A DNA stretch of 64,000 bases from Kiritimatiellia bacterium (lineage in GTDB: Bacteria; Verrucomicrobiota; Kiritimatiellia; RFP12; UBA1067). The position numbers and the translations under genes are program-made. Position 1 is the stretch's first letter; every line of letters starts with the position of its first letter. Of the stretch, positions 8,873 through 61,840 are shown one piece after another. The DNA is taken from the NCBI GenBank assembly GCA_035353175.1, contig DAOPZC010000003.1, forward strand, positions 62,473-126,472, in the 5' to 3' direction. The notes beneath the pieces were generated by a model. The model ran no database searches. It saw nothing but the letters and a program-made list of their open reading frames with translations, and was not told the origin of the DNA.

Positions 8873-9009
8873 ATTTTGGGATTCGCTGGTTAAAAGGATC
8901 ACTCGCGCCCAAAGGCGCTGCTGAAAGGGTTCTGAAACACGGTTAGCAAAGCAAAAAACGGAGCAAAAGAGAATACAAAAAGGAGGCGCGACGCCGAATC
9001 GGAGCCGGA

Positions 9010-10188: not shown

Positions 10189-10197
10189 CCGTCACCC

Positions 10198-10770
10198 TCA
10201 AAAGCCGTACTTGCTCTTGACCGTCTCGAAGAGCCACTCCTTTTCCACTTCGGTCAACCCGACCCCGACATCTCGCCGTTCGATGCCAATGTCGACAGTC
10301 AGCCATCCGCCGCTGAGCTTGAGCGTCCGGATCTGCGGCAGCGTCAGCGACACCTGCCGCCGCTTGGGCAGAAAAGTTTTACTGAACGATCTGCTCTGCA
10401 TCGAATTCGGATCGATCTTGAAAGGATGACGGCCGGTGTCGTAATCGATGGAGGACGAATTGAGCACCAGCGTTTCGGGCACCGCCGGCCGCAGCAGGCA
10501 CACCAGAAAGAGGATCGCCATCACGCCGCCGGCCGTCCAAGCGATCAGCCAAAAAATCTGAAACGCGTCAGCCGCACCGACGTTTAGGCCTTTCTTGAAC
10601 AGGTCGCCGGCCACCCGCCACCAGCCGACCCCCCAACCGCCCAGCCACGCCATGAGGAAAACCGCGGGAAAAATCCGCATCGCCCCGTTCGACGGCAGGG
10701 GCAACACGTACCGCGGAAACCCCCGCTCATCCGTGGTCACGATAATTTTCGACTCTTGCGGCAACTGCAT
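10198..10770 (-). CDS. hypothetical membrane protein (2 TM)
   Basis: The ATG at 10770 is preceded by GAGGGGGG; the track starts at an upstream TTG. Two hydrophobic helices followed by a ~110-aa soluble tail. The gene ends 9 bp upstream of the peptidase gene, so the two probably form an operon. Confidence 0.55.
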   Translation of the reverse strand: MQLPQESKIIVTTDERGFPRYVLPLPSNGAMRIFPAVFLMAWLGGWGVGWWRVAGDLFKKGLNVGAADAFQIFWLIAWTAGGVMAILFLVCLLRPAVPETLVLNSSSIDYDTGRHPFKIDPNSMQSRSFSKTFLPKRRQVSLTLPQIRTLKLSGGWLTVDIGIERRDVGVGLTEVEKEWLFETVKSKYGF

Positions 10771-10918
10771 ATTCCGCCCCCCTCGTTGCACAGACAATAA
10801 CAAAGCCCCTTGCGCAATTCAACGCTTCGTGCCCGCCGCTGCGGGTTTGACCCGTCATCCTTGGCTATGTTATGTTTCGTTTATTATTTTCAGAAAACGA
10901 ACAAGGGAGACGGTTTTC

Positions 10919-13900
10919 ATGCTGGACCCGAGATACCGATCGACGCTCATTCTCGCAGCAGCCTTTTTCCTCTGCATCTCAACGAGTCGCTCCGAGCCGC
11001 CCAAAGCCCTCGCCGACGTCCGCGTCTTCGCGGTCTATGAGCCGGTCATGAGCCGCCAGGACGTCGAGCTTTTGGCGCGCGTCCATCCCGATTTCGTCTG
11101 CCGAGGCTGGTTCAAGTGGCACCACACCCCCGACTGGCGCGCGTACACCCCGCTCGCACAGGCCTGCGCCGAACAGGGCATTCTGCTACAGGGCGGCATC
11201 ACCCTCTCGGCGATCTATCCCGGCGAGAACGGCATGGACGACGCGGCCTTCCGCGATTTCGCAACCCACGGCACCGACGGGCAACCCTACCACTGCCGCA
11301 TGGCGGACAACGGCGGCTGGTACCAGCTCAGCCTCTATAACCCGAAAGTGATCGCGTATCTCAAGCGCGAGGTGCGCCTGCAGATCGACGCCGGCGCGGT
11401 CGGCATCTGGTACGACGAGATCGAAGGTTTCTACGACTGGAACCCGACCGAAGGCTACGACCCTTACGCCTGCGCCGCGTTCCGCGACTGGCTGATCCGC
11501 AAATACTGCGGCGGCCAAGGCTGGCGCGAGAACGACCCGCGCTGGCAGACGCAGTTCGGCATCGATCTCGCGAAACACGGCGGCACCATCCGCACCTTCG
11601 ACTATCTGCGCCACCTCCAGATCACGCCCGGCCGAGACGGTCAACCCCTCGCGGCCAATCCGGCGCAAGGCCACCCGCGCGCCTGGGCAACCTCTGCCAA
11701 CCCGCTCTACCGCGAGTGGGGCTTCGCGTGGGACCGCAAGGCCGCCGGCACCTTCCGTTTCGACACCGTGGCCGCGCTCTTTGCGGACATCCTCGCGGAT
11801 GCCGACCGCTACGCCCGCGAACGTTACGGACGCACGCTGATCAACACCTACAACCACAACGGCACGGCGCGCCCCGGCGTCGCTTTCCTCCAGCCGCACA
11901 ACGGCGCGCAGCCGCCGCTCCGCCACGGACGCCTCGACGGGCGCGCCAGTTACCTCACCTACTATGAGGATCTCATCGCCGATGCCGCGGGCCCTTGCCC
12001 CGGCCAGCCCGTCGTCTTCTTCGTGGACTGGCCCGGCGAGATCGACCGACTGGTCGCCCTGCCGCGCGCCGACCAGACCCACTTCTTCCGGATCTACATC
12101 CCCGAGGCGTATGCCGCCGGCGGCGAATTTGCCCTGCCGCTGCGCGGCTACTCCTATGTGGCCGCCCGGCAAGGCACGCTGGCCGCGCTCACGCGCATGG
12201 CCGACTTCTACCGCGAGTACGCGCCCTTCCTGCGCGGCTCGAAGCCTGGGGGCGCGGGCGGCCTCGTCCGCGATGAGTTCGACCGACTCACGGTCCGTCT
12301 CCGTTCGACCGCAGCCGGCACCGCCGTCCACATCGTCAACCACGCCTTCTCCACGCGTGACGTCTGGCCTTCGCCCCGCACCAACCTCTGTGTGACGCTG
12401 CCCTGGAGCGCCGCCGCGCCAGATTCCGCCTTCGCCGTCTCTCCCGATTTTCCTGACCAGCGTCCCGTGCCGGTATCGCTCAAAGACGGACAGCTCACGC
12501 TCGACGTCGGAACCGTCACCTGCAGTGCGCTCGTGCTGTTGCCCGAGCCCGATGCCCTGCGCCCGCTCACCGGGACCGCACCGAGCGGCACCCACATCGT
12601 CGACCCGCACGGCCGCGCGATGGCGGTCGCGCGCGACGGCCGCTTCACGCTCTGGCTGCCGCCGTCCGAAGGCGTCGGTCTCTGGCGCCGCCTGCTGGGG
12701 CGCGAGGCGTGCGCCACGCGCGAGCTGAAGTGCCTGGAAACCGGCGAGCGCCAGCCCGCGCGCGACGGCGCCGTTTTCGCCGCGCCGCCTGCGGGCGGCT
12801 TCGCCTCCGGCCTGTTGCTCGACGGGTTCGGCATTCCTCTGCGCCACACCGCGCTGACCTGCGGCACGCACCGCTGGCACACCGACGCCTGGGGCCGCTA
12901 CCGCGTGCCGTTGGCGCACGCCTCCGACGCACCGCTGACGGTCTGCGGCGAGGACGGGGCCGTGCACACGCTGGCCCTGTCCGACCGCTTCACCGCCCTC
13001 CGCCTCTTACCTGCCCGCACCCGCATCGGCGACTTCGCCGCATCGCAGGGCGGATACTGGGCCAACTGGCCCGACAAGGAGCGGCTCCGCGGCGTGATCG
13101 CGCTCGCCCGCGAGCGCCACCAAGAGCGCGACGCACTGCGCTGCACCTTCTCGCCCTCGCCATCCGTTCCGTGGTCGAACATCAACTCGCCCGCCTTCAC
13201 CCTCGAAACGGCGGACGCGGTCGAAGTGGTTTACGCAGGCGACGGCACAACGCGCACCGTCCACGCCGTGCTGCATGCGAACGGCCGCTTCTACCGCGCG
13301 CCGCTCGACCTCTCCGCTACAGGGTGGACCGTCAAGCGCATCGCGCTCGGCGAGTTTCGCGACGACCAGGGCGCGCCGTTCGACCCCGCCGCGCACACCG
13401 GCACCGCCGCCTTCCAGCTCGCACCGGCGGGCCTCGGCACCGCGCCCGCCACGCTCTGGCTGCACCGCGTCGCGCTCGTCACCGACACCCCCGTCGTGAC
13501 GCTGTGGCAGAGCGACGCCGCCTTTGACGACGCGGACGTCGACCACCTGCGCGCGGACCACCGCCCGCAACCGCCTCCGCCCCGCGCCGCAGCGCGGCAG
13601 CCGCTGGCGCGCTTCACCGACCCGGCCGCGCGCCACCTCGCCAACTGGGCCGAGAAGAGCGCGGCAGACAAACCGCTGGTCGCCATCGAGCGAGTGGCGC
13701 CGCCGGCCTCGCCGCCCTTCCTGCGGATCACCCTGGCTGCGGGCGAGTGCGCGTGGGGCAACGCCAACATTCCGCTGCCCGCGGACAAACTCGCCGGGAC
13801 GAGCGGCCTCGCCCTGCGGCTGCGCCACTCGCCTGCGACCGAGGATGTGACGGTCGCGCTCCACACGTCCGTCGACGGGAAAAACGCGTTCTTTCAGACG

Positions 13901-27263: not shown

Positions 27264-30200
27264 TTATCTCAGCATCAGCACGGTTCCGTCGGTGAAGCGG
27301 AGCTTGACGTCGCCATCCGCCGTATAGAGAATGCGCCAGCGTTCATCCGGCAGGTTATGTGAGGCGAAAACGCCGCTTCGGGTGCCCGTGCAGGAGAGCA
27401 GTGTGTACGTCCGCTTGGTGTCGAGATCCGCCGGATTGACGATCGCAAGCGATGCGCCAGTCAGGTCGACGTTCCCGTGGACCGCCAGCAAGTCGCTGGA
27501 ACCGTCGGCCGCGACGTCAGCCGACAAGGTCCCGGAAAGCGCCAGGGCGGCCGCGATCGTGAGCGTGCCGAGCGCGCCGTCGCCGGCGGGGGCGAGGGTG
27601 CCGGTGACCGTCAGCGTGCCGTTGCTGACCAGGCCGCCGCCGCTGAGGCGGTCGAGGGCCTGCACGGAGCCGCCCAGATCGAGCGTCGCGCCGCCCGCGA
27701 CCTCGACGACGGAGGCGGGATCGAGCAGGTTGGTGACGACGTTTCCTTCTCCTCGGAGGGTCACCAGACTGCCGTCGCCGGGATCGGTGAAGGCCACGTA
27801 GTTCGCGATGTTGGTCTCGTTGCGGCCCAAGAAGTCGATGCCGAAGCCGAACACGCTTGTTTTCCACCACTCTCGATTGGCCACGATACCCGCGCCCCCG
27901 GTCCCGTTGTAGAAGCGGACATCAAACGCATGCGCGCCGGGCGACAGCGTGAAATTGCCGGTCTTGGGTGTCATCCAGCTGCCGTCATTGATGACGGTCG
28001 TATCGTCGATGCGCAAGAGTACGGCATCGTCGATGCTCTTGGCGAAGGTCCACGTCACGTTGGTCTCGCCGCGGTTCCAGATGCTGCCGGAATAAATGAT
28101 GGTGGTGTTCGTGGGCCAATCCGTTGTGCCCAGGTTCGCCATGCGGGTGCCGAGCTGTATGGCGGTGCACGGATTGGTGGCGGTCGAGGTCAGTCCCGCG
28201 CTTGTAACAAAGCCTTCGTACAGGCCCGGATCACGTTCCTCCAAACGGACAACGCCCCCGCCGATCACGATCGGCGCGGCGGAATTCAAGGTGGCGCCGA
28301 GGGTGAGCGTGCCGTCAGACGCCTTCGAGAGGCTGCTCCCGGTCAAGGTGCCGTTGACGATCATGCCGCCCGTAGCCGTAATCGCGCCATTGGTCAACGC
28401 GAGCCCGTTCAGATTGTAAATGCCGCCCGCCACCTTGACGGCCGCGTTTGTGGGCAGCGAGTCGGCATGCCCCGCGATCAGCGTGCCCGCGTTGATGGTC
28501 GTGACACCGCCGTAGGTGTTGGTGCCGCCCAGCGTGAGGACGCCGTTCCCATTCTTGGTGAGGCCACCCGCCGCCGAGTTCGGCGTCATCAGCGCCACGC
28601 CGGCCTGTCCGAGGGTGGTGTAGCCGCCGCCGCGCAACTCGACGGTGAGCGCGTCGTCGTACTTGTATCCGACGCCGGGGCTGGTGACCGTGATGCCGGT
28701 CAGCTGGCCGAAGGCCGGGCTGTCCTGATCCAGGCTCACGGTCGCAACGGCCGTCGCGCCGAAGCCGCTGCCGCCGGTGATCATCACGACGGGCGGGGCG
28801 ATGTACCCCGCGCCCGGATTGTAGACGCTGATCCAGCCGACGCCCAGTCCGGTCGGAGCGACCAGAGACTGGTTGAGCGTGAGGATCGCGTTGGTGGTGT
28901 CGATCACGGCGCCGCCGGGGTAAACGGTCGCGGCGGTCAGTCCCTGCATGAACGTCGCCGCATAGGCGGTGCCCGAATTGGCTTTGAGTGTGCCGCCGTT
29001 GAAATTGAAGAGCGACGGCGTGCCGGTGACGCCCGCGCGGATGCGGTTCGCCAACAGCGTGCCCGAATTCAGGTTGATGATAGACGCCAGGTTGCCGGCC
29101 GCGTTGGCCATGTTGAACCCCTTCGAGGTGCCATTGCATGCGGCGTCCATGAGCGCATTGGCTCCCAGCAGGTTGAGCACCGCCAACGATCCGTTGTTGG
29201 CGGCATAAGCCATGGTGGTGTCGTTGCCGGCGGACGGGCCTGCGAGCGTGCCGCCGTAGATGTTGGCCACGCCGTTGCCCTTCGACCAGCCCCAGAACAG
29301 CCAGTCGCCGGTGCAGACAGCGGAGGCGTCGGTGCCGAAAATTTCAAAGACCGCGTTGTTCTCGCCGTTCGCGGCCGTCCCGCCCGGCAGGCCGATGCGG
29401 CCGGAGCGCAGGGTGCCGCTGTTGAGCCGGTAGTAGCCGTAGCCGCCGTTGTGGCCGAGGTTCAGCCGGTCGCCGCCGGTGGGGTTGATCTCGACGGTGC
29501 TGTTGTTGTTCTGGTAAACCGCGCCGTTCGCGATTTGGTTTTGGGCCAGGATGATGCCGTTCAGCGTCAGATCGTCATTAATGAACACGCGGGCGCGGTC
29601 GCCGTTGCCGTTACCCACGTAAAGGATTTCCATGCGGGTGGGGCCGTCGACGGTCAGCGTGCCGCCCAGCGAGGTCGGCTGGACGACGGTGCGGCCGATG
29701 ATGTTCGAACTGCCGTTCGCCAGCGTGAGGCTGGCGCCGTTCACGACGCGCACTTCGCCGTATTGCGAGCTTCCCGTCGAGGTGGCCGTGGCGTTGGTAT
29801 TGAAGCCGCTCATCGTCAGCGTGTTCGTGCCGCGGAGGTAGAGCGTGAAACTGTCCTGCACGTTGGTGAGGGCGAAGGGACCCGACGAGGAGAGGTCGAT
29901 GTCCAAGATGGCGCTGTTGGCCGTGAAGACCGTGTTGCTGATGAGCGCCATGATCTGGTCAGCGTTCCAGCCGATGACGCCGTTGCCGGCTTCAACCCGC
30001 AGGTACTTGCCGGCCACGACGGTCACCGCGCCGGTCTCATAGCCGGGCAGCGAGCCGGGATTGTGCGCGTAAAGCGTGCTGTTGCTGACGATGGTGCCGC
30101 CGCTGTACGTGTTGTTCGTGCCGGTCAGGTGGAACACACAGGTGTCGCTGCCCGCCTTCACCAGCCTGCCGCTGCCGGAAATATCGCCCGCGAAGGTGGC

Positions 30201-33200
30201 CTGCGTGTCGTTGGCGCTCGTCAGGAAGGCCGTTCCGTTGAGCGACACAGGGCCGGCCCAGATATTCTGAAGAGTGCTGTTGCCGTAACGGGCATAGAAG
30301 CGGCCGAGGTCGTTCAGCACCAGGCTCCAGGCGACCGGAAGAGTCGCTTGATAGATGTCGAATGCGGCGTTGCCTTGCACCGTCACGGTATTGGACGCGT
30401 CGCCGCCGAGCGACGTGTTCACCTCGATAGAGAACGAGCCTTCCTGGATATCGATGTGTCCGGGGTTTCTGACGGGGACCGCCGTGAGACCGACCATGTT
30501 GGACCCGACCTTGGTCATCGTAAAACCGTTCATGTCGAAGAAAGGCGGCTTGGACGAGTCTGTGTTGCGGATGTCCCAGCGCGCGCTGCCGTGCTCGCCG
30601 CCGAAGGTCGCGTCTCCCGCGAGCGCCAGGTAGCGGAAAGCGTTGTATTGGGAGCGGGCGGACGAGTTGATGATCGCGCCACGGCCGTTCAGGCCGGTGC
30701 CGCTGACCATAAAGAGTTCGTCGCCGAAGTTGACCGCGTTGTCCGTGGTGCTGAAGCCCACGTCGAGCGTGCCACGGTTCGTGATGATCGTTCCCGCGAG
30801 CGTCGACCCCAAAGCCGCGTTGTTGCTGGGCATCAGGGTGCCTTCCCGGATGAGGGTCAGCCCGTTGTAGGTGTTGGCTGAACCCAGGACGATGCGGCTG
30901 CTGCCCTCCTTCACCAGCGCGCCGGCACCGCTGATCGCGCCCGCGAGGGTCTGCGTCGTCCCGTTCGCCGCCAGGACCAGTTCGCCCGCGTCGATTTGCG
31001 TGGCGCCGGTATAGGCGGTGGCGCCGTTCAGGCGCACGGCACCTTGGCCCAGCTTCACCAGCGAAGAGGCCGAGGTGTTGTTGGTGACGGGGGTGTTGAC
31101 CGACAAGGCGTTGTTGGCCGAATAGTTCGCGAGGGAGAGCGCTTCGCCGGCGGAACGCGGCATCAAGAGCCCGTCAGCCGTGTTGGTGCCGATGGTCAGG
31201 GAGGCCATGTATTCGCCGATGATCAGGCTGGAGGTCTTCAGGATCTGGCCGTTGGTCAGCCCGACTTTCGCATCCCACCCGGTGGCCTGCAGAAGTCCGC
31301 CGAGGCTGGTTTCGGTCTCGGCCTGGAGCGCGATGTCGCCTGTGGTCCCCTCCTCGGTGATCCGGGCGAAGGCGGTCGCATCGTTCGGAAGCACGGAAGG
31401 CCCCTTGGCCGAAATGTTGCTGTAGGCGGAATCGCCGGCCGGGATCACGCCCTGCGCGGCCGTGTAGGAGGCGAGGTTCGTGCCGTTGTGCAAAGCCCAC
31501 GGGCCGATCAGGGCGTTGTCGGCGGCGGGGGGCGTCGCAAACAGGATGCGGTTGCGGTTGTCTTCCGCACCCAGTCCGTTGCCGACGAAGTTCACGGATC
31601 CGCCGCCCGTGCGTGCCAGCGAGGCGAAGGTCAGCGTGGAGGTCTGGTCCGGATCGGCCTGCGAGGCCATCACGGCCGTGCCACCGCTGCCGACCGTCAG
31701 CGCGCCGGCGGTTTCACTGTAGCTGGCCGAACCGCCCGAATGCGTAAAGCTCAAGGTGCCGCCATTGAGCGTGACCGCGCCGCTGTCGCTCAACCGGTTG
31801 GCGTGATTGGCGGAAGGCGAGTTGCTGACGACGAACGTGCCGCCGCCCAGCGTCACCCCGCCGTTGATGGAACCGTTCTCGCCGCCGATCACCAGCGTCC
31901 CGTTGTTCGCGTAGGTGATCGCGTCATACGTGTTCGACCCCGAGAGCGTCCACGTTCCGGAGCCGGCCTCGCGGATGACCGGAAGCCCCATCGTCAGGGT
32001 CCCGTTGTCGATGGTGCCGCGGATCTCGCCGTCGCCGTTGCCCTGCAAGCGCAGGTTTCTCGCCGCGGTCTGGTCGCTCGTCATGTTTCCGGTGAAGAGC
32101 ACCTTGCCCGCGTTGGATTTGAAGATGGAGTCCCCGTCGCCGCCGGTGATGATGACCGGCCCTTGGATCGTATTGTTTCCGGCCTCGTTCAGGAGGGCGC
32201 CGAAGCGGCTGTTGCTTGTGCGGAAGGTGATTTCAGGCGGGATGGTCAAATCGCCGACCGTACCGTCGAAATGGATGTGCGGGTTGGCGTTGTTCGCGTT
32301 GTTGGCGGCTTGCGCGGTCTTGGGGCCGACGCCGAACGCGCCGCTGTTCCTGATGACCAGCGAGCCGTCCTCGACCACAACGTTGCCCTTATAGGTGTTG
32401 TTGCCGGAGAGAATCCAGGCGCCTGAGCCCGTCTTGAAAAGGTTGTTGGTTGAGTTGGCATCGTAATCGGAGATGGCGCCGGCGACCTCGCCGGTGCCCG
32501 ACGTGCTGCCATACAGGCGGAGCTGTTTGTTGCTGGCGACCGCGGCCGTGATGTCGCCCGTAAACTTGAGCAGCCCGTTTCCGGCCTGCTCGAGGTACGT
32601 TCCGCCGGTGGTGCCGCCCATGACGATGGCGCGCTCGGTGGTATCGCCGGTTCCGCGGTAGGTGAGCGTGCCGGTCGAGGTGCCGCTGCCGATGCGGATC
32701 GGCAAGTCGGCGGCCTCCGTGGGCGCGCCGAGCGCGCTGGGCTCGCCTGCATTCCGAAGCGAGTAGGCTTGGACCGCGCCGGCTTTGATCCAGGTGGCGC
32801 CCGCATAGGTGTTGGAGGCCGTCAGAATGAGGGTGCCGTTCCCCATCTTGGTGACCGGATGCGGACCGTTGAGGTCGCTGATCACGCCGCGGATGTAGCC
32901 GTTTCCGTTGGGAACGCCCAGCAAGCCGTCGTTCGCAGGATCGGAAATGTTGTTGGCAAGGTAGACAGGCCCGTTCCATGCCCCGTCCCAATCCAGCCGG
33001 AGTTGGCCGTAGGATTCGCCCGTGTTGCCGCCCTCCAGAATCAGGGTGCCGCTGTGGGGATAGGTCCCGGTGCCGACCATGAGGGTCGAATTGGTGCGCA
33101 CGACAAAGGTCGCGGCGGGGTTGTCCCTGCCGTTCATCATGGCTTTGCCGCCTGAGGCTGCCACGCCGATGTTCCAGACGCCGGTGAACTCCGAATAATC

Positions 33201-35924
33201 CGCGTTCAAATAGCTGGTCGTGCTGCCGGTCTGCAGCGTGACGTTGTTCGTGCCCGCGCCGCTGATCTTGGGGTAACTGAGGGAGACCGTGCTGACCGTC
33301 TTCATGTCGACCGTGCCGTTGTTGACGACCGGCCCCGCGCCAAGGGCGCTGACGTGGTTGGCGACGACCGTGCTCCCCGTGTTGACCGTGAGGCCGCCGC
33401 TGAAGGAGTTGGCACTTCCCAGCGTGAGCGCGCCGGTGCCGGTTTTGGTCAGGCTGCCGCCGCCCGAGAGCGAGCCGGTGAAGGTGGTGCTGGCGTCGTT
33501 CTTGCCGACGGTCAGCGCGATCGGTTTGTCCGCGTTGTCGACGAGGGTCAATCCCTGACTGCCGCTGAGGCCGCCGAACGTGAAGGCGTGCCCGGACACG
33601 CCGCTGTCAAACACGGGCGGCGTGCCGCCGAGGGTGACGGTGCTGTTCTGGAGCGCGTTGCCGTTGGCCAGCACGAGCGCTCCAGCGCTGATCGCGGTAT
33701 TGCCGGAGAAGGTGTTTTCGGCCGCGAGCGTCACGGCGCCGGTGCCGGCCTTGGCCAATGAAGAGGCGCCGGCGTTGTCCGCGATCACGGCGTTGACGGT
33801 GAGGCTGCTCGCGCCGTCGTTGGCGAGGGTCAGGTTTCCGCCCTCTGCGGCGGCCGTGAGGGTTCCGTCGCCCGCCGCCGCGCCGAGGGTGAGAGCGGCC
33901 TTGCCGGCCGGGACTGCGGCGGCGGAGGTGCGCAGCGTTTTGCCCGCCGTGTTCACGGTCGAGTCGAATACGGAGTTCTGGGCCAGCGAATTGATCGCCG
34001 TGGTGGCGTCGCTCAGCTCATTGTTGCCCGTCGTGCCTTCCGTCGTGATGCGGACGTTGCTGGACGGGTTGGAGATGATCGTGTCGCCGCGGGCCGCGAT
34101 GTCCGCGTAGGAAGCGCTCTCAGAGGCATAGACGCCGCGCGCGCTGCTGTAGGCGGCCAGGGCGGAGCCGTTGACCGTGGCCCAGCCGATCGGGCCGTCG
34201 CTTTGACCGTTGATGAAGATCCGGTTGCGGTCGCTCTCGCCGAGGCCGGCGCCCGTGAAGTCGACGGTGCCGGAGGTGCGCGTGAGGCCGCTGAGCGTGA
34301 GGGCGGAGGTGCGGCCCGCGGCGGCTTGCGAGGCAGAGAGGGTGTTCGGTCCGGAGACGAGCGCGACCGTGCCGGCCGTTTCGCTGTAGTCGGCCGCGCC
34401 GGCGGTGTGGGCGAAGCTCAGGGTGCCGCCGTTCATCGTGATGCTGCCGCTGTCCTTGACGCGGTTGGGCAGGTTGGCGTCGGGGGTGTTGCTGATTTGA
34501 AGCGTGCCGCCGGCATTGATCGTGATGCCGCTGGTGGAGAGGATCGAGCCGCTGGCGCCCTTGATAACGAGGGTTCCGCCGTCGACGAACGTGCCGCCGC
34601 CGTAGAGGTTCGCGCCTGAGAGCGCCCACAGGCCGGTGCCCTGCTTATAGACGGCAACATTCCCCGCGTTGTTCACGATGACGCCGCTGATCTCGGCCGT
34701 GCCGGCCGTCGAGCCCATCAGGGTGAGGCTCAGTCCGCTCGTGGTCGCGCAGACCGTGTTGGTGGTGAAAGCCAAGTGCCCGGCGCCGGCGTGCTCGATC
34801 CGCGCGTGGGAATTGAATTCGAGGGTGCGGTCGGTGGACTCGCCCGCGCCGATGTACTTCAGCTTGGGCCCGCCATCGTTGTTGCTGTTGAAGCGGATCT
34901 TGGAGCCCGCGCCGAGGTTACTGTCGGTGGCGCCGCGGTTGCCGAAACGGGCGGCGCTGATGGTGCCGGCGGCGTTCATCACGACGTATCCCGCGAAATC
35001 GTTGATGCCGTTGAGCTCGAACGTGCCCGCCCGGCCTGCCGGGGAATAGAGCTCGAAGCCGCCGGGGCCGGTGATGCGGCAGTTGATGGCGCAGGTGGCA
35101 TTGACGTCGTCCACGCGGTTGTCGGAGTAGCTCTCGGCACCGCCCGTGCTGAATTGGATCGCGCCGGTTCCCGTGATCGTACCGCCGGCCGCGCAGACGA
35201 TGTTGTCGCCGCCCAAGTTGGTGAACGTGGTGTAGCCTTGGCCGATGTCGAGCACGCTGCGGGGTCCGCCGTTCAGATACAGGATGCGGAGGACGTTCGT
35301 TCCGGAAAGCGTCGTGGTCCCCGAGTTGTTGACGCTGATGTCGAGGGTGGTCGCCCCCCCCTTTGTGATGTTGCCGAGGAGCTTGACCGGACCAACGCCG
35401 TTCACGTTGAGCGTTTTGCCGCCCGCCGTGCCGCCGCTCGCCGCGCCAAAAATATTCCCGTAAACGGTGAGGGCGTTGAACGCATGATCATTCTGGAAGG
35501 TGTAGCTGTTGCCGGTCGTGTCGGGGCCGAGCTGGATTCCGGCGGCGATGAAATGGCTGTTTTTCGAGTCGCTGAGGACCCGATAGTTTGCGCCGTGACG
35601 CGCGACGAGCGTCTGGCTGTTGACGGGCCAGTCGCCGATGTAGTAGGAAGGCACGCTCGTTCCCGAGAAATTGATGTAGCGGATGGCCGAAAGGCCCGCG
35701 AGGTTGATGTTGGTGCGGTTGTTTCCCGATCCGCTGAAGGTGGCCGTGTCTTCGCTGACGGGATAGGCCGCGTTGTTGTCGGACCAGTTGACTTTGTTTG
35801 TCCAGTACCCGCTGTTGGCGCCGCCGTCCCAGGTTCCGCTCGTCGCCCACACCTGACGACCGCACAGCATCATGAGCATTGCGGCGGAAAACGAGCCACA
35901 GGTGAATAACCGATTACGAGTCAT
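27264..35924 (-). CDS. giant (2886 aa) secreted repeat protein: autotransporter-associated beta-strand (PATR) repeats plus a PA14 domain; putative cell-surface adhesin
   Basis: Shine-Dalgarno AAGGAG sits 8 nt upstream of the ATG at 35924 (MTRNRLFTCGSFSAAMLMMLCGRQVWA). Dozens of ~30-aa G/T/N/S-rich repeats of the GGTL.....G.GTLTL.G.NTY.G.T.I..G.L type. A PA14-like segment near the C-terminus (GLYEGFVTSAGL...FTLSPGAHAFDVRFYNGTGGAG). There is an internal duplication of a ~150-aa block (see finding). Confidence 0.85.
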   Translation of the reverse strand: MTRNRLFTCGSFSAAMLMMLCGRQVWATSGTWDGGANSGYWTNKVNWSDNNAAYPVSEDTATFSGSGNNRTNINLAGLSAIRYINFSGTSVPSYYIGDWPVNSQTLVARHGANYRVLSDSKNSHFIAAGIQLGPDTTGNSYTFQNDHAFNALTVYGNIFGAASGGTAGGKTLNVNGVGPVKLLGNITKGGATTLDISVNNSGTTTLSGTNVLRILYLNGGPRSVLDIGQGYTTFTNLGGDNIVCAAGGTITGTGAIQFSTGGAESYSDNRVDDVNATCAINCRITGPGGFELYSPAGRAGTFELNGINDFAGYVVMNAAGTISAARFGNRGATDSNLGAGSKIRFNSNNDGGPKLKYIGAGESTDRTLEFNSHARIEHAGAGHLAFTTNTVCATTSGLSLTLMGSTAGTAEISGVIVNNAGNVAVYKQGTGLWALSGANLYGGGTFVDGGTLVIKGASGSILSTSGITINAGGTLQISNTPDANLPNRVKDSGSITMNGGTLSFAHTAGAADYSETAGTVALVSGPNTLSASQAAAGRTSALTLSGLTRTSGTVDFTGAGLGESDRNRIFINGQSDGPIGWATVNGSALAAYSSARGVYASESASYADIAARGDTIISNPSSNVRITTEGTTGNNELSDATTAINSLAQNSVFDSTVNTAGKTLRTSAAAVPAGKAALTLGAAAGDGTLTAAAEGGNLTLANDGASSLTVNAVIADNAGASSLAKAGTGAVTLAAENTFSGNTAISAGALVLANGNALQNSTVTLGGTPPVFDSGVSGHAFTFGGLSGSQGLTLVDNADKPIALTVGKNDASTTFTGSLSGGGSLTKTGTGALTLGSANSFSGGLTVNTGSTVVANHVSALGAGPVVNNGTVDMKTVSTVSLSYPKISGAGTNNVTLQTGSTTSYLNADYSEFTGVWNIGVAASGGKAMMNGRDNPAATFVVRTNSTLMVGTGTYPHSGTLILEGGNTGESYGQLRLDWDGAWNGPVYLANNISDPANDGLLGVPNGNGYIRGVISDLNGPHPVTKMGNGTLILTASNTYAGATWIKAGAVQAYSLRNAGEPSALGAPTEAADLPIRIGSGTSTGTLTYRGTGDTTERAIVMGGTTGGTYLEQAGNGLLKFTGDITAAVASNKQLRLYGSTSGTGEVAGAISDYDANSTNNLFKTGSGAWILSGNNTYKGNVVVEDGSLVIRNSGAFGVGPKTAQAANNANNANPHIHFDGTVGDLTIPPEITFRTSNSRFGALLNEAGNNTIQGPVIITGGDGDSIFKSNAGKVLFTGNMTSDQTAARNLRLQGNGDGEIRGTIDNGTLTMGLPVIREAGSGTWTLSGSNTYDAITYANNGTLVIGGENGSINGGVTLGGGTFVVSNSPSANHANRLSDSGAVTLNGGTLSFTHSGGSASYSETAGALTVGSGGTAVMASQADPDQTSTLTFASLARTGGGSVNFVGNGLGAEDNRNRILFATPPAADNALIGPWALHNGTNLASYTAAQGVIPAGDSAYSNISAKGPSVLPNDATAFARITEEGTTGDIALQAETETSLGGLLQATGWDAKVGLTNGQILKTSSLIIGEYMASLTIGTNTADGLLMPRSAGEALSLANYSANNALSVNTPVTNNTSASSLVKLGQGAVRLNGATAYTGATQIDAGELVLAANGTTQTLAGAISGAGALVKEGSSRIVLGSANTYNGLTLIREGTLMPSNNAALGSTLAGTIITNRGTLDVGFSTTDNAVNFGDELFMVSGTGLNGRGAIINSSARSQYNAFRYLALAGDATFGGEHGSARWDIRNTDSSKPPFFDMNGFTMTKVGSNMVGLTAVPVRNPGHIDIQEGSFSIEVNTSLGGDASNTVTVQGNAAFDIYQATLPVAWSLVLNDLGRFYARYGNSTLQNIWAGPVSLNGTAFLTSANDTQATFAGDISGSGRLVKAGSDTCVFHLTGTNNTYSGGTIVSNSTLYAHNPGSLPGYETGAVTVVAGKYLRVEAGNGVIGWNADQIMALISNTVFTANSAILDIDLSSSGPFALTNVQDSFTLYLRGTNTLTMSGFNTNATATSTGSSQYGEVRVVNGASLTLANGSSNIIGRTVVQPTSLGGTLTVDGPTRMEILYVGNGNGDRARVFINDDLTLNGIILAQNQIANGAVYQNNNSTVEINPTGGDRLNLGHNGGYGYYRLNSGTLRSGRIGLPGGTAANGENNAVFEIFGTDASAVCTGDWLFWGWSKGNGVANIYGGTLAGPSAGNDTTMAYAANNGSLAVLNLLGANALMDAACNGTSKGFNMANAAGNLASIINLNSGTLLANRIRAGVTGTPSLFNFNGGTLKANSGTAYAATFMQGLTAATVYPGGAVIDTTNAILTLNQSLVAPTGLGVGWISVYNPGAGYIAPPVVMITGGSGFGATAVATVSLDQDSPAFGQLTGITVTSPGVGYKYDDALTVELRGGGYTTLGQAGVALMTPNSAAGGLTKNGNGVLTLGGTNTYGGVTTINAGTLIAGHADSLPTNAAVKVAGGIYNLNGLALTNGAITATGGMIVNGTLTGSSLSKASDGTLTLGATLNSAAPIVIGGGVVRLEERDPGLYEGFVTSAGLTSTATNPCTAIQLGTRMANLGTTDWPTNTTIIYSGSIWNRGETNVTWTFAKSIDDAVLLRIDDTTVINDGSWMTPKTGNFTLSPGAHAFDVRFYNGTGGAGIVANREWWKTSVFGFGIDFLGRNETNIANYVAFTDPGDGSLVTLRGEGNVVTNLLDPASVVEVAGGATLDLGGSVQALDRLSGGGLVSNGTLTVTGTLAPAGDGALGTLTIAAALALSGTLSADVAADGSSDLLAVHGNVDLTGASLAIVNPADLDTKRTYTLLSCTGTRSGVFASHNLPDERWRILYTADGDVKLRFTDGTVLMLR

Positions 35925-36229
35925 AATAACACTCCTTGTTTGCCACACCGGAAGTTCGACCGAGAACCCAAATTTAAATAACCTAAGTTATGTTACATGC
36001 GGGTGCTAAGCGCGGTCAAGGCGCAATGCCCGAAAACGGGGAAAACTTTCGCGAAAAGACGGTCAGCCTTCGGGCGGTCGACGGTCTTTTGAACGTCGGC
36101 CGCGCGTTGGCCTTGCGTGACCGTTCATCACGCGGACGGGGCCGCCCGCCCCAGATGTTCCGCATACGCCACGCACGAACCTTGCCCCTCCCCGCCACCA
36201 ACCGGCGGCCTCCGTACCGCTCAAAACCG

Positions 36230-56489: not shown

Positions 56490-58805
56490 TTACTGCACGC
56501 GAGGCGGCGGGACCGCCTGGCCGGCGCACTGGGCGGCCTGCTCCTGCCGGCCGTACGTGCCGTAGAACGCGGCATTGCCGTCGAGCCACACGCAAAGCCG
56601 CAGCCGGTCGTCATCCGACAGCCGAATGCGGCCCCTGTGGCTGTTGCCGTCGAGAACCTTGAGCAGCGGGCTCTCGTCGGCACCCATATGGCCCGGCAGG
56701 GTGACGGCCTGAGCGATGCTCTTGTCTCCCCATTCATACCACCGCACCTGCCCTTTCAGGCTGTTGTACGCTTTGCTGAACTCGCCTTCGGGCGTGCCGG
56801 TCAGAATGAGCGTGCCGCGCTGCGGCCCTTTCGCGCCGTCGTGACAACGCACGCAATGGCGGTCGAGCACCGGCTGCACCAGCCGCGGAAAACACCACGG
56901 CCGCGTACCGTCCGGCCCGGCGAGTATCTTCGACAGCGCATGGCGCGACGCGAGCGGCTGACGATCCGGCGGCGGGCTCTCTGGCCGCTCGTGGCAACCC
57001 ACGCAGCTTCGGCGCTCCCCGGGCTGCAGATAGACCGCGCTGCGCATCGTGTGAACGGCCCGGCCTGACGCGTCCACCGCCTGAAAGAAAAGCGGCCGGC
57101 GCGCAGGCGCACGAAAGAAGGCCGAGCCGTCGGACTCAACCGGCACCGTGCCCAGCAGCATACGCGCACACTCCGCATTGGCGTAGCCGATGCGCGGCTG
57201 GTTGGCCACGTGCGTCTCGCTCTTGGGCAGCAGCTGAAAGATCCGCAGGCTGCGAACCGGACGGTCAGACGGCAGCGGCGTCAGGCTGGCACGCACGTCG
57301 CTGAGGACAAGCTCCCCCTCGTCGCCCAAAGCCGGGTCACACGAACGGGTCGGTGCCGGCGGTTTGGGGCGCGGGCCCAGAGGCGTCGGATACATCGACG
57401 AGATCCCCGGCGCGCGATACAGCAGCTCCATGTTTCCGAAGCGGTCGAAGTAGTAAAGGCCCGTCTCGCCGTCGCGCACGACCTTCGGCCCCATGCCCGG
57501 CAACGGATCGAAGCTGAACGAGACCAGGTAATAGTCCTCCGACAGCGGACAGGGGCTGTGGAAATAGCTGTCGGGCCAGCCGGCGGCCTCCGGAAAACAG
57601 ACCTCCGGCGTGAGCACTTCCAGCGAATCGAAATTGTCCTCGCCGCTCTTCGGGTCGAGGCTGGTCCGCGAGGGATCGACCACCACCAGCGAGCCGCCCA
57701 CGGCGGCGTGATGCGCGCCCGCCACAAACACGATCCGGTTCGAGCCGGGAATCGCCCGCGGCTGATAGCAGGCGTTGATCCGCATGGTGTAGTTGCCGAA
57801 GAGAATGCTCGGGCTGGTGCCGTCCGGGTTGCTCGTCCAGATACCGTGAAACTGGGCGGCCGAGCGATCGACGTAGTCCCAGCGGCTATAGGCGATGCGC
57901 CCGTCGGCGAGCACGGACGGATGCCACTCGTTCGTCTCGTGCCAAGAAAGCGTCTGCACGCCGCTGCCGTCGCCGTTCATCCGGTGCAGGGTGTAGGTCG
58001 GCAGCGGCTCCCACGGATTGTGGCATCGTCCGAAGCCGCCGCGCCGCGTCGACATAAACGCCACGCCGCCGTCCGGCAGCGGGCACGGATCGAAATCGTC
58101 GTTCGGCCCGTCGGTCAACTGCCGCAGCCCCGAACCGTCGGTCTGCACGGTGTAGAGGTGAAAGCAGCGACGCTGAGGCGAACGGAAGTCGGGCTTCTCC
58201 GGCGCGCGCTCGGCATAGGCGAAATAGATTGTGTGCCCGTCCCAGCCCAGCGAAAGCGTCGTGAAATTGCCGCGCGGAAGCCGCCCGGCGATCAGATCGC
58301 GCGTCCTCAGCGACCGTCCTGGCGTCTCCAGCACGTACACGCCGCCGCCCGCGATATCGCCGTAGTCGTAATAATAGCCCAAGTATTCGTGCAACATTTG
58401 GGTGACGAACCGCCGTCGCTGCATGAAGACCACCGGACGAGCACCCAGCAAAGGATTCTTCAGCGCCGCCTCGCGGCCAATCCAGCGGATGCCGCGGTAC
58501 AGGGACAGCCGCTCCGCCTCGGGGAGCGTCGCGGACTTCGCCGCTGCGGTTTGTAGTTTCGCCAGGTCGGCCCGTTCGCGGGTGAGCTCCAGAGGCCGGG
58601 GGGCGCGACTGAGCCCGTCCAGCAGGCGGGCGACGCGCTGACACGCGAGCTGGATCGCCTCGGGCGACTGTGCGAGGCGACCGGCCCGTTTCTCCTGCGC
58701 CGCCCAGTCCGCCTCCACGGTCGCGCGAAAGGCCGCGTCATCGTCAACCGCGCCCGCCAGTACCGCAACCGACACGAGGGCGACCAGAATTATTTTCCCG
58801 TTCAT
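56490..58805 (-). CDS. secreted TolB/PD40-type beta-propeller protein with a C-terminal di-haem (2x CXXCH) cytochrome-c-like region
   Basis: Shine-Dalgarno AAGGGAAGAGG precedes the ATG at 58805 (MNGKIILVALVSVAVLAGA). PD40-like blades (LTDGPNDDFDPCPLPDGGVAFMSTRRG; WHPSVLADGRIAYSRWDY; TSNPDGTSPSILFGN). C-terminal CVGCHE and CVRCHD are haem-c attachment motifs. Confidence 0.75.
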   Translation of the reverse strand: MNGKIILVALVSVAVLAGAVDDDAAFRATVEADWAAQEKRAGRLAQSPEAIQLACQRVARLLDGLSRAPRPLELTRERADLAKLQTAAAKSATLPEAERLSLYRGIRWIGREAALKNPLLGARPVVFMQRRRFVTQMLHEYLGYYYDYGDIAGGGVYVLETPGRSLRTRDLIAGRLPRGNFTTLSLGWDGHTIYFAYAERAPEKPDFRSPQRRCFHLYTVQTDGSGLRQLTDGPNDDFDPCPLPDGGVAFMSTRRGGFGRCHNPWEPLPTYTLHRMNGDGSGVQTLSWHETNEWHPSVLADGRIAYSRWDYVDRSAAQFHGIWTSNPDGTSPSILFGNYTMRINACYQPRAIPGSNRIVFVAGAHHAAVGGSLVVVDPSRTSLDPKSGEDNFDSLEVLTPEVCFPEAAGWPDSYFHSPCPLSEDYYLVSFSFDPLPGMGPKVVRDGETGLYYFDRFGNMELLYRAPGISSMYPTPLGPRPKPPAPTRSCDPALGDEGELVLSDVRASLTPLPSDRPVRSLRIFQLLPKSETHVANQPRIGYANAECARMLLGTVPVESDGSAFFRAPARRPLFFQAVDASGRAVHTMRSAVYLQPGERRSCVGCHERPESPPPDRQPLASRHALSKILAGPDGTRPWCFPRLVQPVLDRHCVRCHDGAKGPQRGTLILTGTPEGEFSKAYNSLKGQVRWYEWGDKSIAQAVTLPGHMGADESPLLKVLDGNSHRGRIRLSDDDRLRLCVWLDGNAAFYGTYGRQEQAAQCAGQAVPPPRVQ

Positions 58806-59006
58806 CCTCTTCCCTTTCTGTGACTTCACCCGCTGCAAGTGACGCAAAGTCGATCTATATCCACATGAGGCAGGATTTTACATGCCCGCAACGACACTTT
58901 CAAGCAGCCCGCCCTCAAGAAGCCAAGGCGGAAAGGACGTGCAAGCGCGCGCCCCTCCGTATGCCGCAAGGATCAGCACAACCGCGCGGCGCGTGTCGCC
59001 GGACCT

Positions 59007-59205
59007 CATCACTGCGCCGTCCTCGCTACCAACGGCCACATCGGCAAGCTGACAAACGTGCTGAAAATGGCCTCGACAAATCTACTTAGCGCGTACACTC
59101 TCCGGCCAACACCACCATAATGCGTTCAAAGGCCGCCAGGTTCCTGATCTGCGCAAGTCGACTCAGGTCCCTCTCGACATAGGTCATGAAGGCGTAATTT
59201 TCAAG
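59007..59205 (-). pseudogene. decayed fragment of a DUF4143/COG1373-type AAA+ ATPase gene
   Basis: Minus-strand frame A (59205-59086): LENYAFMTYVERDLSRLAQIRNLAAFERIMVVLAGECTR*. Frame +1 (59084-59007): RFVEAIFSTFVSLPMW... Together these mirror the conserved COG1373 segment '..TYLERDV..L..IRDL..F.RFLRLLA...GQ... / ..LEDAFLVF.LPPW..', broken by a stop and a frameshift. No intact ATPase N-terminus is present. Confidence 0.45.
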
Positions 59206-59296
59206 TTGAATATTAAAAATACGCTGTAAAGCCACAATGACTTTAACGCCGCCCCTCCAACGGTCGCGGAAGGGCTGCGCCCCCGCGGTCCGCAGC

Positions 59297-61840
59297 TCAC
59301 CGCCGGACCGTCAGCTCGCGGATGCCAAAGGCAGGCAGCGTCAGAGCATCGCCGCCGCAGCTGACCGCGCACGGCGTCTCGCCGAGGTTGTTCACGACCG
59401 CTCGGCACTCGCCCTGGCTGACCCGGAAGGCCGTCACGCGCGCAGACGGCGCGTCGAGCGCGATCAGGCTCTGCTGCGCGGGCCACTCTCCGTTGCCCGG
59501 CCGGACGCGGAACAGCGGCACGCCGACGCGCAGCCGGTCCGCAGCCGCGGCCACCTCCGCAGGGGGGCACAGCACAAGGCCGAAGCGGTGCTCGTACGCG
59601 CCCAGAAACGGGTCGCCGCCCGACGTGATCAGGTGGTCGGCGTAGCCGCTGGGAAGAATTTTGCACTCGGGCCGCTTGTCCGCCCGGCCCTGGATGGAGG
59701 CCCCCAGGCTCGCCGCCACAACGCCGTCCAGCGGCGCGACGCGGAACGACTGGTTCCCGCCCAGCGCCACCACGGCGAAAGCCGCATCGCCGGAAGCGAT
59801 GGAGGCGAAGCGTTGCGCCGCGATGAACGACGGCTCGGGATTGGCGTGCTCGATCGTTGCGTAAGGGATGTCGTAGCGGACGCGGCCGGGCCAGCCGCGA
59901 AACTCCAAGAGCAAGCCCGCGGGGTCGTACTTGCCCTTCCCGATCCGGCGCGGCATGTCGACCTGGACGCAGGCCGTCACCTCGACGCGGTCCAGCCGGA
60001 GACCGATCACCAGCCGGATCCAGACGGCCCACGCCAGCTCGGTGAAGACCTCCAGCTCGGGCCCGAACGGCGTCTCCCGCACGCGAGCCGTCGCGCGGGC
60101 CCAGTCCGGCCGCACCTCTTCCGCCGCTGCGGCGCCCGAAGGATCGCTGAGCTTGAAAGGCGCGACCGCGATCTCGATCTGGCGCGAGCCCTCGGCCACA
60201 AGCAGGCGTCCCTCCGTCAGTCCCGCGCGCTGGCCTTCGGCCGACACCTCGCTGCCCGCCCGCCACTCCGCGGCCGGCTGCGCGCCCGGCTGCTCCCGCA
60301 ATCCGAGCAGGCAATAGCCGTAAGCGGGAAGCTCGACCCGCGCGGAGGCAGTCCACTGTCCCGCGCGGCAGGCGAGATCCCCCGGCAGCGGCGAACCGTC
60401 CGCGGCCACGAGCGCCAGCGGGCCGTCGACCGGGAGCGAGACCTCCGCCGTGCGGGAGGGCGCGGGGTTCAGCGCGAGCACGTAGCCCGCGCAGCCCGGC
60501 GCGGGCGTGCGGAGGCGCGCCGCCACCTGCTGCGCGAAGCGCGCCAGCAGCTCGTTCGAGTAGGCGCGTGACGCGTCCAGCACGGTCTCGCGGTGAAGCG
60601 TGCGCGGCGTCCAGGGAAACCAGCCGCTGGAGTCGGAGTTGAGGCCGATCAGCGCGTGGTGCCAGGCGCGCGAGAGCACGGTCGGCTCGCCGCCCAGGGC
60701 CAGGCAAAGGGCTTCGGTCTCCGGGAACTCGCCCACCTCTTCGAAGCGCGTGTCCCATGGGTTGTCGGGCGGCGTCGTCCACGCTTGCTTCAGCGGCACG
60801 TCCACCGGTCCGAGGCGGTGAAGCGCGGCCGCGGCATGGGCAAACCCCGCGGCGCGCAGGGCGTCCAGCGTTTTCACGGCGTGCCCGTGCCAGCTCATGT
60901 CCATCGGATGAGAGGTCCAGCGCGAGAAGCTGGGGCTGGGCTCGCGGTCCTCCTGCGCCTGGCCGAACGGATGGGGCGCCGCGCACGTGACGTGAATGCC
61001 GACCTCCTGCGTGTACCGCTCGACCGTGGTCCAGCGGATGATTTTGCCCTTTTGCGCCAGACGCGCGATCTCCGCGACGTAGGCATCGATGTCGCCAAGT
61101 TGCTCGAAGTCGCCGCCGGCCATGATGAAACTGCCGTCCGCGTGCGAGTCGTAATACGCCTCAAGCTGGCCGAGCCGGATCGTGCGGAGGTCGAGGGGAA
61201 AAACGTCTACCGCGCTGCCGTCGATTCCCTGCACGCGCCGCGGCCGGTCCCAGCCGTCGGGCATAACGATCAGCCGCCGGACGCCGATCTGGTTCATGAC
61301 ATACGGCAGCTGGGGATGAAACACAATCTCCTGGGGGAAGAAGGCCGAGCAATCGGGCTGCAGCTCCCGGCGCATCAGCTCCATGCTGACGCGGCTCGCG
61401 ACCAGGTCGGACTCTTCGTCCGACGCGAGCGCGTGGCTCGCGGCGTACTGGCACCCCACCATCGCGATCTGCCGGCGGTCCACCAGCGGCTTCAGCTCTT
61501 CCAAAAACCCGGGCGCATAGCGCTTCAGGCTGAGCAGCGTCAGCCCCGGGAAGTCGATGTGGGCCGTCACCTCCGGATGGGCCTTGAGCGCGCGCAGGCC
61601 TGTGGCGTAGATGCGGGGGAACTTCTCGCGGATCTCCTGCTTGGTGTAGCGGTCGTAGCACATGTTGCCGTGCAGCAGGAACGAGAGGTAAACGGTCTTG
61701 GGCTTCGCGGGCTCCGGCGCGGACGCGGCCGACAGCGGGACGCCGACAGCCGCAAGCCCCGCCACCCCCTGCAACACGCGCCTCCTGGAAACGCACCCGC
61801 ACGTCTGGAAAATCCCCCGACTCCGCGACTGCTCAAACAT
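59297..61840 (-). CDS. Tat-exported putative glycoside hydrolase (GH38/GH57-like N-terminal domain)
   Basis: Shine-Dalgarno AGGAGGGG precedes the ATG at 61840. Tat-like SRRRVLQGVAGLAAVGVPLSAASA. N-terminal VYLSFLLHGNMCYDRY...IDFPGLTL resembles the metal-binding N-domain of GH38/GH57-type enzymes. The remainder carries no signature I can name. Confidence 0.6.
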   Translation of the reverse strand: MFEQSRSRGIFQTCGCVSRRRVLQGVAGLAAVGVPLSAASAPEPAKPKTVYLSFLLHGNMCYDRYTKQEIREKFPRIYATGLRALKAHPEVTAHIDFPGLTLLSLKRYAPGFLEELKPLVDRRQIAMVGCQYAASHALASDEESDLVASRVSMELMRRELQPDCSAFFPQEIVFHPQLPYVMNQIGVRRLIVMPDGWDRPRRVQGIDGSAVDVFPLDLRTIRLGQLEAYYDSHADGSFIMAGGDFEQLGDIDAYVAEIARLAQKGKIIRWTTVERYTQEVGIHVTCAAPHPFGQAQEDREPSPSFSRWTSHPMDMSWHGHAVKTLDALRAAGFAHAAAALHRLGPVDVPLKQAWTTPPDNPWDTRFEEVGEFPETEALCLALGGEPTVLSRAWHHALIGLNSDSSGWFPWTPRTLHRETVLDASRAYSNELLARFAQQVAARLRTPAPGCAGYVLALNPAPSRTAEVSLPVDGPLALVAADGSPLPGDLACRAGQWTASARVELPAYGYCLLGLREQPGAQPAAEWRAGSEVSAEGQRAGLTEGRLLVAEGSRQIEIAVAPFKLSDPSGAAAAEEVRPDWARATARVRETPFGPELEVFTELAWAVWIRLVIGLRLDRVEVTACVQVDMPRRIGKGKYDPAGLLLEFRGWPGRVRYDIPYATIEHANPEPSFIAAQRFASIASGDAAFAVVALGGNQSFRVAPLDGVVAASLGASIQGRADKRPECKILPSGYADHLITSGGDPFLGAYEHRFGLVLCPPAEVAAAADRLRVGVPLFRVRPGNGEWPAQQSLIALDAPSARVTAFRVSQGECRAVVNNLGETPCAVSCGGDALTLPAFGIRELTVRR

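Follow-up and report, generated by a model that had tools for sequence, protein, structure and literature searches.

The stretch of DNA analysed here, a 64,000-nucleotide segment referred to as the window, contains a 491-bp spacer (58806-59296) that separates two minus-strand genes. The upstream gene (59297..61777) encodes a protein of 826 aa without a Pfam domain, and the downstream gene (56490..58805) encodes a protein of 771 aa with an HZS_alpha middle domain. No other gap between called genes in the vicinity is as long, although gaps of 296 and 321 bp also occur. GC content drops from about 70% in the flanking genes to 42–55% around 59050-59250. A sigma-70-like promoter match on the minus strand (58875..58903; TTGAAA-17-TAAAAT, 10 of 12 positions), which is a consensus match only, is positioned to drive the downstream gene. 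An Rfam search of the spacer gave no match at E ≤ 1, and a terminator scan of the same interval found none.

Homologues of the 826-aa protein number at least 61, in MAGs of Kiritimatiellae, Lentisphaerae, Hydrogenedentes and other groups. One of them (P0024), from a 92–94% relative, bears a Kiritimatiellae label, which makes that class the probable home of the window's organism too. A precomputed match to Glyco_hydro_57 (PF03065) is on record for two distant homologues (P0059 and P0062), and in some relatives (L093 and L100) the homologue is preceded by a glycyl-radical enzyme and an activase. For the HZS_alpha-domain protein, at least 80 loci (L011-L090) were found among 185k species genomes, in Planctomycetota, Verrucomicrobiota, Hydrogenedentota and other MAGs. 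Synteny through this downstream gene was set aside as uninformative, because its relatives are merely 58–69% identical and none of the 80 loci has a relative of the 826-aa gene or a DUF4143 gene within 10 kb. Elsewhere in the window, a very long minus-strand ORF of 2894 aa occupies positions 27264-35948.

A sequence-only reading of this DNA had quoted two translations from the spacer as parts of one DUF4143 ATPase. Both exist in the sequence, on the minus strand and in two frames; the homology to DUF4143 ATPases was confirmed for the first (block 1) and is unsupported for the second (block 2). Block 1 (FMTYVERDLSRLAQIRNLAAFERIMVVLAG; LENYAFMTYVERDLSRLAQIRNLAAFERIMVVLAGECTR followed by a stop) terminates at a TAA at 59086-59088 and is a true remnant of an AAA_14+DUF4143 ATPase gene (COG1373, PADLOC candidate PDC-S01). 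DUF4143 (PF13635) is its sole Pfam match and falls below the gathering threshold, at 12.8 bits compared with a cut-off of 28.1 (E=0.1, profile positions 1-26 of 160), and the stitched peptide has no match in NCBIfam. A phmmer search of the fragment against 1.84 billion protein cluster representatives returned nothing at E ≤ 0.001 except the 49-aa ORF P0001 from this very locus, and a word-indexed protein search returned that ORF alone. The fragment is too short and too decayed for a database-wide search to reach significance.

Searches directed at the window itself gave a clear signal. The sequence-only reading had proposed searching the spacer with DUF4143 proteins or an HMM, and the result was significant for block 1, with an HMM E-value of 9.7e-7 and tblastn E-values down to 2e-10. 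A tblastn search of the peptide against plasmids produced 33 weak matches; among those listed, nearly every one falls in a gene with the annotation 'ATP-binding protein', and four of these genes were retrieved and confirmed to encode AAA_14+DUF4143 proteins. When these four proteins were searched back against the whole 64-kb window by tblastn, the best match of each fell at 59074-59307 on the minus strand (E 2e-4 to 2e-2), and the next-best matches had E-values of about 1. An HMM built from 124 family members and run against 1722 six-frame segments of the window selected the segment 59310-59089 at 24.5 bits, through HMM positions 162-200, with a runner-up at E=6.7. A frameshift-aware profile-to-DNA alignment, made with a frameshift-tolerant aligner custom-written for this analysis, scored 39.9 on the relic, compared with 14.2 ± 1.8 (maximum 20.9) in 248 control chunks of the window. 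The strongest match was to the ATPase of a metagenome contig, L101, which aligned by tblastn with window positions 59199-59074 at 71% identity over 42 aa (E=2e-10) and continued through the stop (GRVGQIVNLS in L101, GECTR*VDLS in the window). The homology to bona fide family members is thus significant and collinear, and all matches fall at aa ~165-208.

L101 (Ga0265295_1016566) and a second contig, L102 (Ga0265297_10058484), were recovered in a metagenome scan with a 74-aa peptide. Both carry complete AAA_14+DUF4143 genes, encoding 386 aa in L101 and a similar product in L102. In L101, the gene is flanked by the 3′ end of a ligase-like gene on one side and by a ParE toxin gene on the other, with housekeeping genes adjoining. 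The two contigs have only the ATPase gene and a palindrome upstream of it in common, with 75% nucleotide identity from the palindrome onward and unrelated flanks, and to judge from these two contigs the palindrome and the gene behave as a discrete accessory unit. The intact proteins match PADLOC models of PDC-S01 with E-values of 9e-96 and 3e-110; PDC-S01 denotes the fusion of an ATPase with a domain of the PD-(D/E)XK superfamily (Pfam PF13173+PF13635; COG1373). The suggestion that such ATPases are linked to mobile or defence islands therefore stands in so far as the family is a PADLOC defence candidate, which is a database fact; as to function, it is a candidate only.

Alignment with the intact genes defines the anatomy of the remnant. 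Its 5′ part is a 40-nt relic of the AT-rich palindrome (59191..59230, minus strand), which in intact relatives lies 41-43 nt upstream of the start codon. By blastn, positions 59230-59191 of the window correspond at 87.5% identity to L101 1132-1171, a stretch 45-84 nt 5′ of the L101 start codon. Of the two palindrome arms, the right one (59191-59201, AAAATTACGCC) is intact and the left one (59215-59224, GCGTATTTTT) is degraded. The 3′ part (59074..59190, minus strand) consists of 39 codons corresponding to aa 170-208 of the intact 386-aa ATPase, at the start of the DUF4143 domain, and reads FMTYVERDLSRLAQIRNLAAFERIMVVLAGECTR*VDLS. Codon 170 and those that follow it (TTC ATG ACC TAT GTC GAG) directly abut the palindrome right arm. 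At this junction ~550 bp are missing between the palindrome and codon 170, and with them the P-loop domain in full as well as the -10 region and the RBS. Because the palindrome is fused to codon 170 in native order and orientation, the arrangement shows an internal deletion within a once-contiguous gene copy.

The remainder of the gene was sought in the window with negative results. No match to family aa 1-160 or to HMM positions 1-161, which would represent the AAA_14 (PF13173) P-loop domain, occurs anywhere in the window. The 3′ half is likewise gone: nothing recognisable of codons 209-387 is left in the spacer, and HMM positions 200-386, which cover the C-terminal PD-(D/E)XK-type core (the second half of DUF4143), find nothing above the null in 58806-59100. 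Instead of an uninterrupted frame of ~380-420 aa, the locus retains 39 homologous codons, which are broken by an in-frame TAA and by local frameshifts. Two candidate extensions on the 5′ side were rejected. The 'NYA' that opens block 1 was considered as the family 'NY' motif and is the non-coding palindrome right arm (AAT TAC GCC). The 'WRGG' at 59248-59259, aligned with the family 'FKGGYP' in an 81-aa tblastn alignment to an Allochromatium protein, lies 5′ of the palindrome and is spurious. Comparison with L101 identifies 59191-59230 as non-coding palindrome, which excludes collinear coding sequence at any position further 5′. Taken together, positions 59074-59230 on the minus strand (157 bases) are very probably a defunct remnant of a stand-alone AAA_14+DUF4143 ATPase gene (COG1373, PDC-S01) that would formerly have stood, with its own palindrome, between the 826-aa and HZS_alpha-like genes. 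The proposal of an inactivated and largely deleted stand-alone DUF4143/COG1373 ATPase gene at this site is borne out by the fusion of the gene's own upstream palindrome to codon 170.

The surviving codons carry the marks of decay. Over these 39 codons, the intact copies in L101 and L102 are separated by 27 nucleotide differences, which give 24 synonymous codon changes and a single non-synonymous one. The same comparison between the window and L101 yields 17 synonymous and 11 non-synonymous codons, TAA included, and seven of these 11 fall in the last nine codons. A Smith-Waterman nucleotide alignment to L101 explains this cluster by three indels at 59086..59104 on the minus strand, two of them deletions (of 1 nt and 2 nt) and one, between these, an insertion of 3 nt. 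They would account for the in-frame TAA at 59086-59088. The palindrome has eroded as well: DNA folding gives z=-7.3 in L101, -4.9 in L102 and only -1.5 in the window, so the window hairpin is not stable.

The sequence-only reading had joined both blocks through one stop and one frameshift. In that model, the two peptides derive from one gene with a deletion of ~20 codons and a frameshift between them, and the relic reaches ~59036. Block 2 (RFVEAIFSTFVSLPMW; 59036..59083, minus strand) sits where the collinear LEASF..LxP motif would be expected after a ~60-nt deletion. In our own reading, it has six identities in 11 positions with L101 (EAxFxTFxxxP), and the stretch that encodes it is old, being common to the relative L091. 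Set against this, block 2 is indistinguishable from chance. It scores ~5 bits in the expected HMM register and more in other registers, and the sub-HMM of positions 200-386 reaches 12.5 on 58806-59100, a value equalled by 24% of control chunks. When random 280-nt pieces of the window are scored in the same way, 90% of them attain the raw BLOSUM62 score of 23 that block 2 has with the closest intact protein, and at the nucleotide level 58806-59085 resembles the rest of the L101 gene with its 3′ flank no more closely than shuffled sequence does. Moreover, the homology past the stop stays in the same frame (VDLS in the window, VNLS in L101), without a jump to the block 2 frame, and this continuation overlaps block 2. 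A single gene spanning both blocks is therefore rather unlikely. Block 2 could conceivably be a very decayed piece of the gene, but it adds no evidence.

To place the relic in its genomic context, we collected contigs carrying homologues of the upstream 826-aa gene, which form a graded identity series. In L091 and L092 (~94% nucleotide identity), the homology runs past the stop codon through the adjoining spacer segment (59231..59296) as far as 59238 by blastn, and then skips 59105-59237, which contains the palindrome and most of the codons. It resumes at 59025..59104 (77.5% identity in L091), a segment that holds the distal end of the relic, and again at 58897..58990 (83% identity). Between the segments matching 59104-59025 and 58990-58897, L091 has a 2.9-kb stretch that the window lacks. 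It holds a gene at 8606-11482, on the minus strand in the locus and the same in L092, which encodes, on the opposite strand, a 958-aa protein with AEP-TOTE primase (PADLOC PrimPol), ResIII/DEAD helicase and DUF559/MTES_1575 endonuclease domains. The last 27 codons of this gene, past the DUF559 domain (which ends at aa 931), read into the shared 80-bp segment on the other strand. Inspection by eye for signs of an insertion in L091 or a deletion in the window revealed no target-site duplication or clear end homology. The homology that stops at 58897 ends just past the -35 hexamer of the promoter match, so that the window lineage alone has this -10 hexamer and 5′ UTR.

Across GGAGAGTG…GTAGAT, L091 and the window agree in length and in indel pattern. 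As L091 shares this pattern at the distal end of the relic, inactivation would predate the split of the two lineages, and we infer that L091 lost a further ~125-130 bp, with the relic core, after the split.

More distant relatives are broken at the same place in other ways. In L098 (~92%), the position equivalent to 59297 is joined directly to 58709; the whole spacer is lost and 172 bp of the HZS_alpha-like gene are left. The upstream gene of L098 is itself split into ORFs of 550 and 213 aa (2931-3743 in L098, also in L096 and L097; window 58538-58709 and 59297-60433), with an internal deletion and a 127-bp duplication, and the whole gene block is decaying in this lineage. In L095 (88%), L094 (82%) and L093, L099 and L100 (78–79%), homology is lost at the stop codon or no more than ~20 bp from it, and other genes follow. 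The downstream neighbours of the upstream gene differ in every sampled relative, and its 3′ end is the recurrent breakpoint. The site is a rearrangement boundary, and from this pattern we infer a hotspot for accessory-gene gain and loss. The idea of an insertion scar or recombination boundary is accordingly supported by L091/L092, by L098 and by the 78–88% set. The sequence-only reading had also proposed to compare related genomes for an intact ATPase or other cargo at this position: none of the sampled relatives has an intact ATPase there, and different cargo lies at the boundary in relatives.

These observations are consistent with a stepwise history. A whole ATPase gene with its own palindrome would once have lain between the 826-aa gene and the HZS_alpha-like gene. 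Small indels would have disabled it first, and larger deletions would have whittled the copy down later. The inactivation would have preceded the split between the window and L091 lineages, with L091 then losing the relic core. The present DNA would do nothing as a gene, and the spacer would amount to a terminator-to-promoter gap containing the putative sigma-70-like promoter.

Since no sampled relative has an intact ATPase at the locus, the residence of a whole gene rests on the arrangement of palindrome plus codons. The internal deletion could have occurred before the piece arrived at the locus. A fragment that was never a whole gene here, and came already truncated by recombination or by the event that joined the flanking genes, would fit the lack of an intact copy in relatives, the heavy rearrangement of the locus between close relatives, and the GC content of the relic, which at 42–55% is below the ~70% of the flanks. 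Yet the palindrome and codons stand in native order and orientation, as an in-place internal deletion leaves them, and the distal relic end common to L091 indicates that the piece was resident before the split and has been shrinking in place since. Both of these points are compatible with an earlier truncation elsewhere. On balance, we consider arrival in truncated form distinctly improbable and favour decay of a resident gene.

The relic overlaps a 49-aa ORF (P0001; 59086..59235, minus strand) that is called as a gene in JGI data, in two of the five same-species contigs (L001 and L004). We read this ORF as an over-called artefact, its 5′ third apparently palindrome relic and its remainder pseudogene. 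That it encodes a functional small protein, or that the palindrome relic is a working regulatory site, might be argued from the open and called frame, the intact right arm of the palindrome, and a spacer that is 100% identical across five same-species metagenome contigs with overall identities of 99.3–99.9% (differences of 0.1–0.75%). With at most ~4 differences expected in 491 bp, however, this identity says little, and five contigs with an identical spacer carry no population signal for or against constraint. Furthermore, the first 15 codons of the ORF are non-coding palindrome sequence and its last codons are frameshifted, it has no homologue among the 1.84 billion representatives, it is deleted in the closest relative (L091), and the hairpin is no longer stable (z=-1.5). 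A present function for either element is very improbable. Chance resemblance in a high-GC spacer, which a Pfam E-value of merely 0.1 might suggest, is refuted by the family-HMM score (window-wide E=1e-6), the frameshift-aware score and the L101 score (2e-10), together with an independent 40-nt non-coding match at the right place, and we regard it as next to impossible.

The palindrome led to an observation on the family as a whole. We examined the upstream regions of 16 AAA_14+DUF4143 genes (12 from plasmids, two from metagenome contigs and two from viral contigs) and found an AT-rich inverted repeat with arms of 12-21 nt in ten of them, from at least three phyla, ending 0-45 nt before the start codon or overlapping the start. 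The repeats lie at 958-990 in L007, 963-1003 in L008, 836-880 in L010, 1128-1180 in L101 and 899-937 in L102, and just before position 401 in L105, L107, L108 and L110. Against 100 dinucleotide shuffles, nine of the ten palindromes outperform 96 or more; the remaining one, in L009, is a weaker repeat with 78% complementarity. The L101 palindrome reads GGGCGTAATTTT-N13-AAAATTACGCCC, and that of L102, GGGCGTAATATT…AATATTACGCCC, has a paired change relative to L101 that preserves the symmetry. Half-sites are alike across phyla (GGGCGTAATTTT, GGTGTAATTTC, TATGTAATTTC, TCGTACATTT and TTGCATATTT), with a core close to YGTAATTTY. In the window, a relic of such a palindrome is present with one arm intact and the other degraded, and it no longer folds stably. 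A scan of viral contigs for further family members yielded two loci, neither with a palindrome. As a family feature the palindrome is an observation of this analysis and not a published criterion, and we found no mention of an upstream palindrome in the literature on DUF4143 or COG1373. We tentatively put forward that it could represent a hitherto undescribed cis element, common to PDC-S01-type genes throughout the family, which might act either as an operator bound by the DNA-binding part of the protein itself or as a hairpin masking the ribosome-binding site. If true, this would provide a first experimental handle on the control or DNA recognition of a very common uncharacterised candidate defence gene.

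For this genome, the relic is of little importance: it accounts for a single long spacer and for the over-calling of a 49-aa gene. Beyond this, it marks a boundary at which accessory genes come and go between CAZyme-type genes in a probable Kiritimatiellae lineage, and offers a clean worked example of stepwise deletional decay across sister lineages. Nothing else here leads further except the recurrent palindrome, which could guide experiments, PDC-S01 being among the most abundant unvalidated 'defence candidates'.

DUF4143/COG1373 proteins are catalogued in the PD-(D/E)XK superfamily with function unknown (PMC3424549). PDC-S01, an ATPase with a PD-(D/E)XK domain, is reported to be the fourth most common 'defence' system across prokaryotes, and most PDC candidates await validation (PMC12988326). 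One representative of PDC-S01, a putative defence system, was tried against T7, T5 and T4 and was outside the protective candidates (bioRxiv 10.1101/2024.09.26.614923). Unlike such a system, the window has neither the ATPase domain nor the nuclease core, so it cannot act as one. The closest intact counterparts, L101 and L102, resemble the window relic in order and orientation and in sequence, with 71% aa identity over aa 168-208 by tblastn and 82% over the best 33-aa segment. They differ from it in being complete genes under strong purifying selection, in genomes of 48–60% GC and with unrelated flanks, whereas the window retains 39 codons and a broken palindrome. The relic is genuine and ordinary in kind, a pseudogene scar that a common accessory ATPase has left at a variable boundary. 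It is like the ordinary decay of pseudogenes at accessory-gene hotspots in its succession of small indels and then larger deletions, in the differing remains left in sister lineages, and in the different cargo found at the same boundary in relatives; the sole unusual point of the window is that part of a cis element has survived beside the codons.
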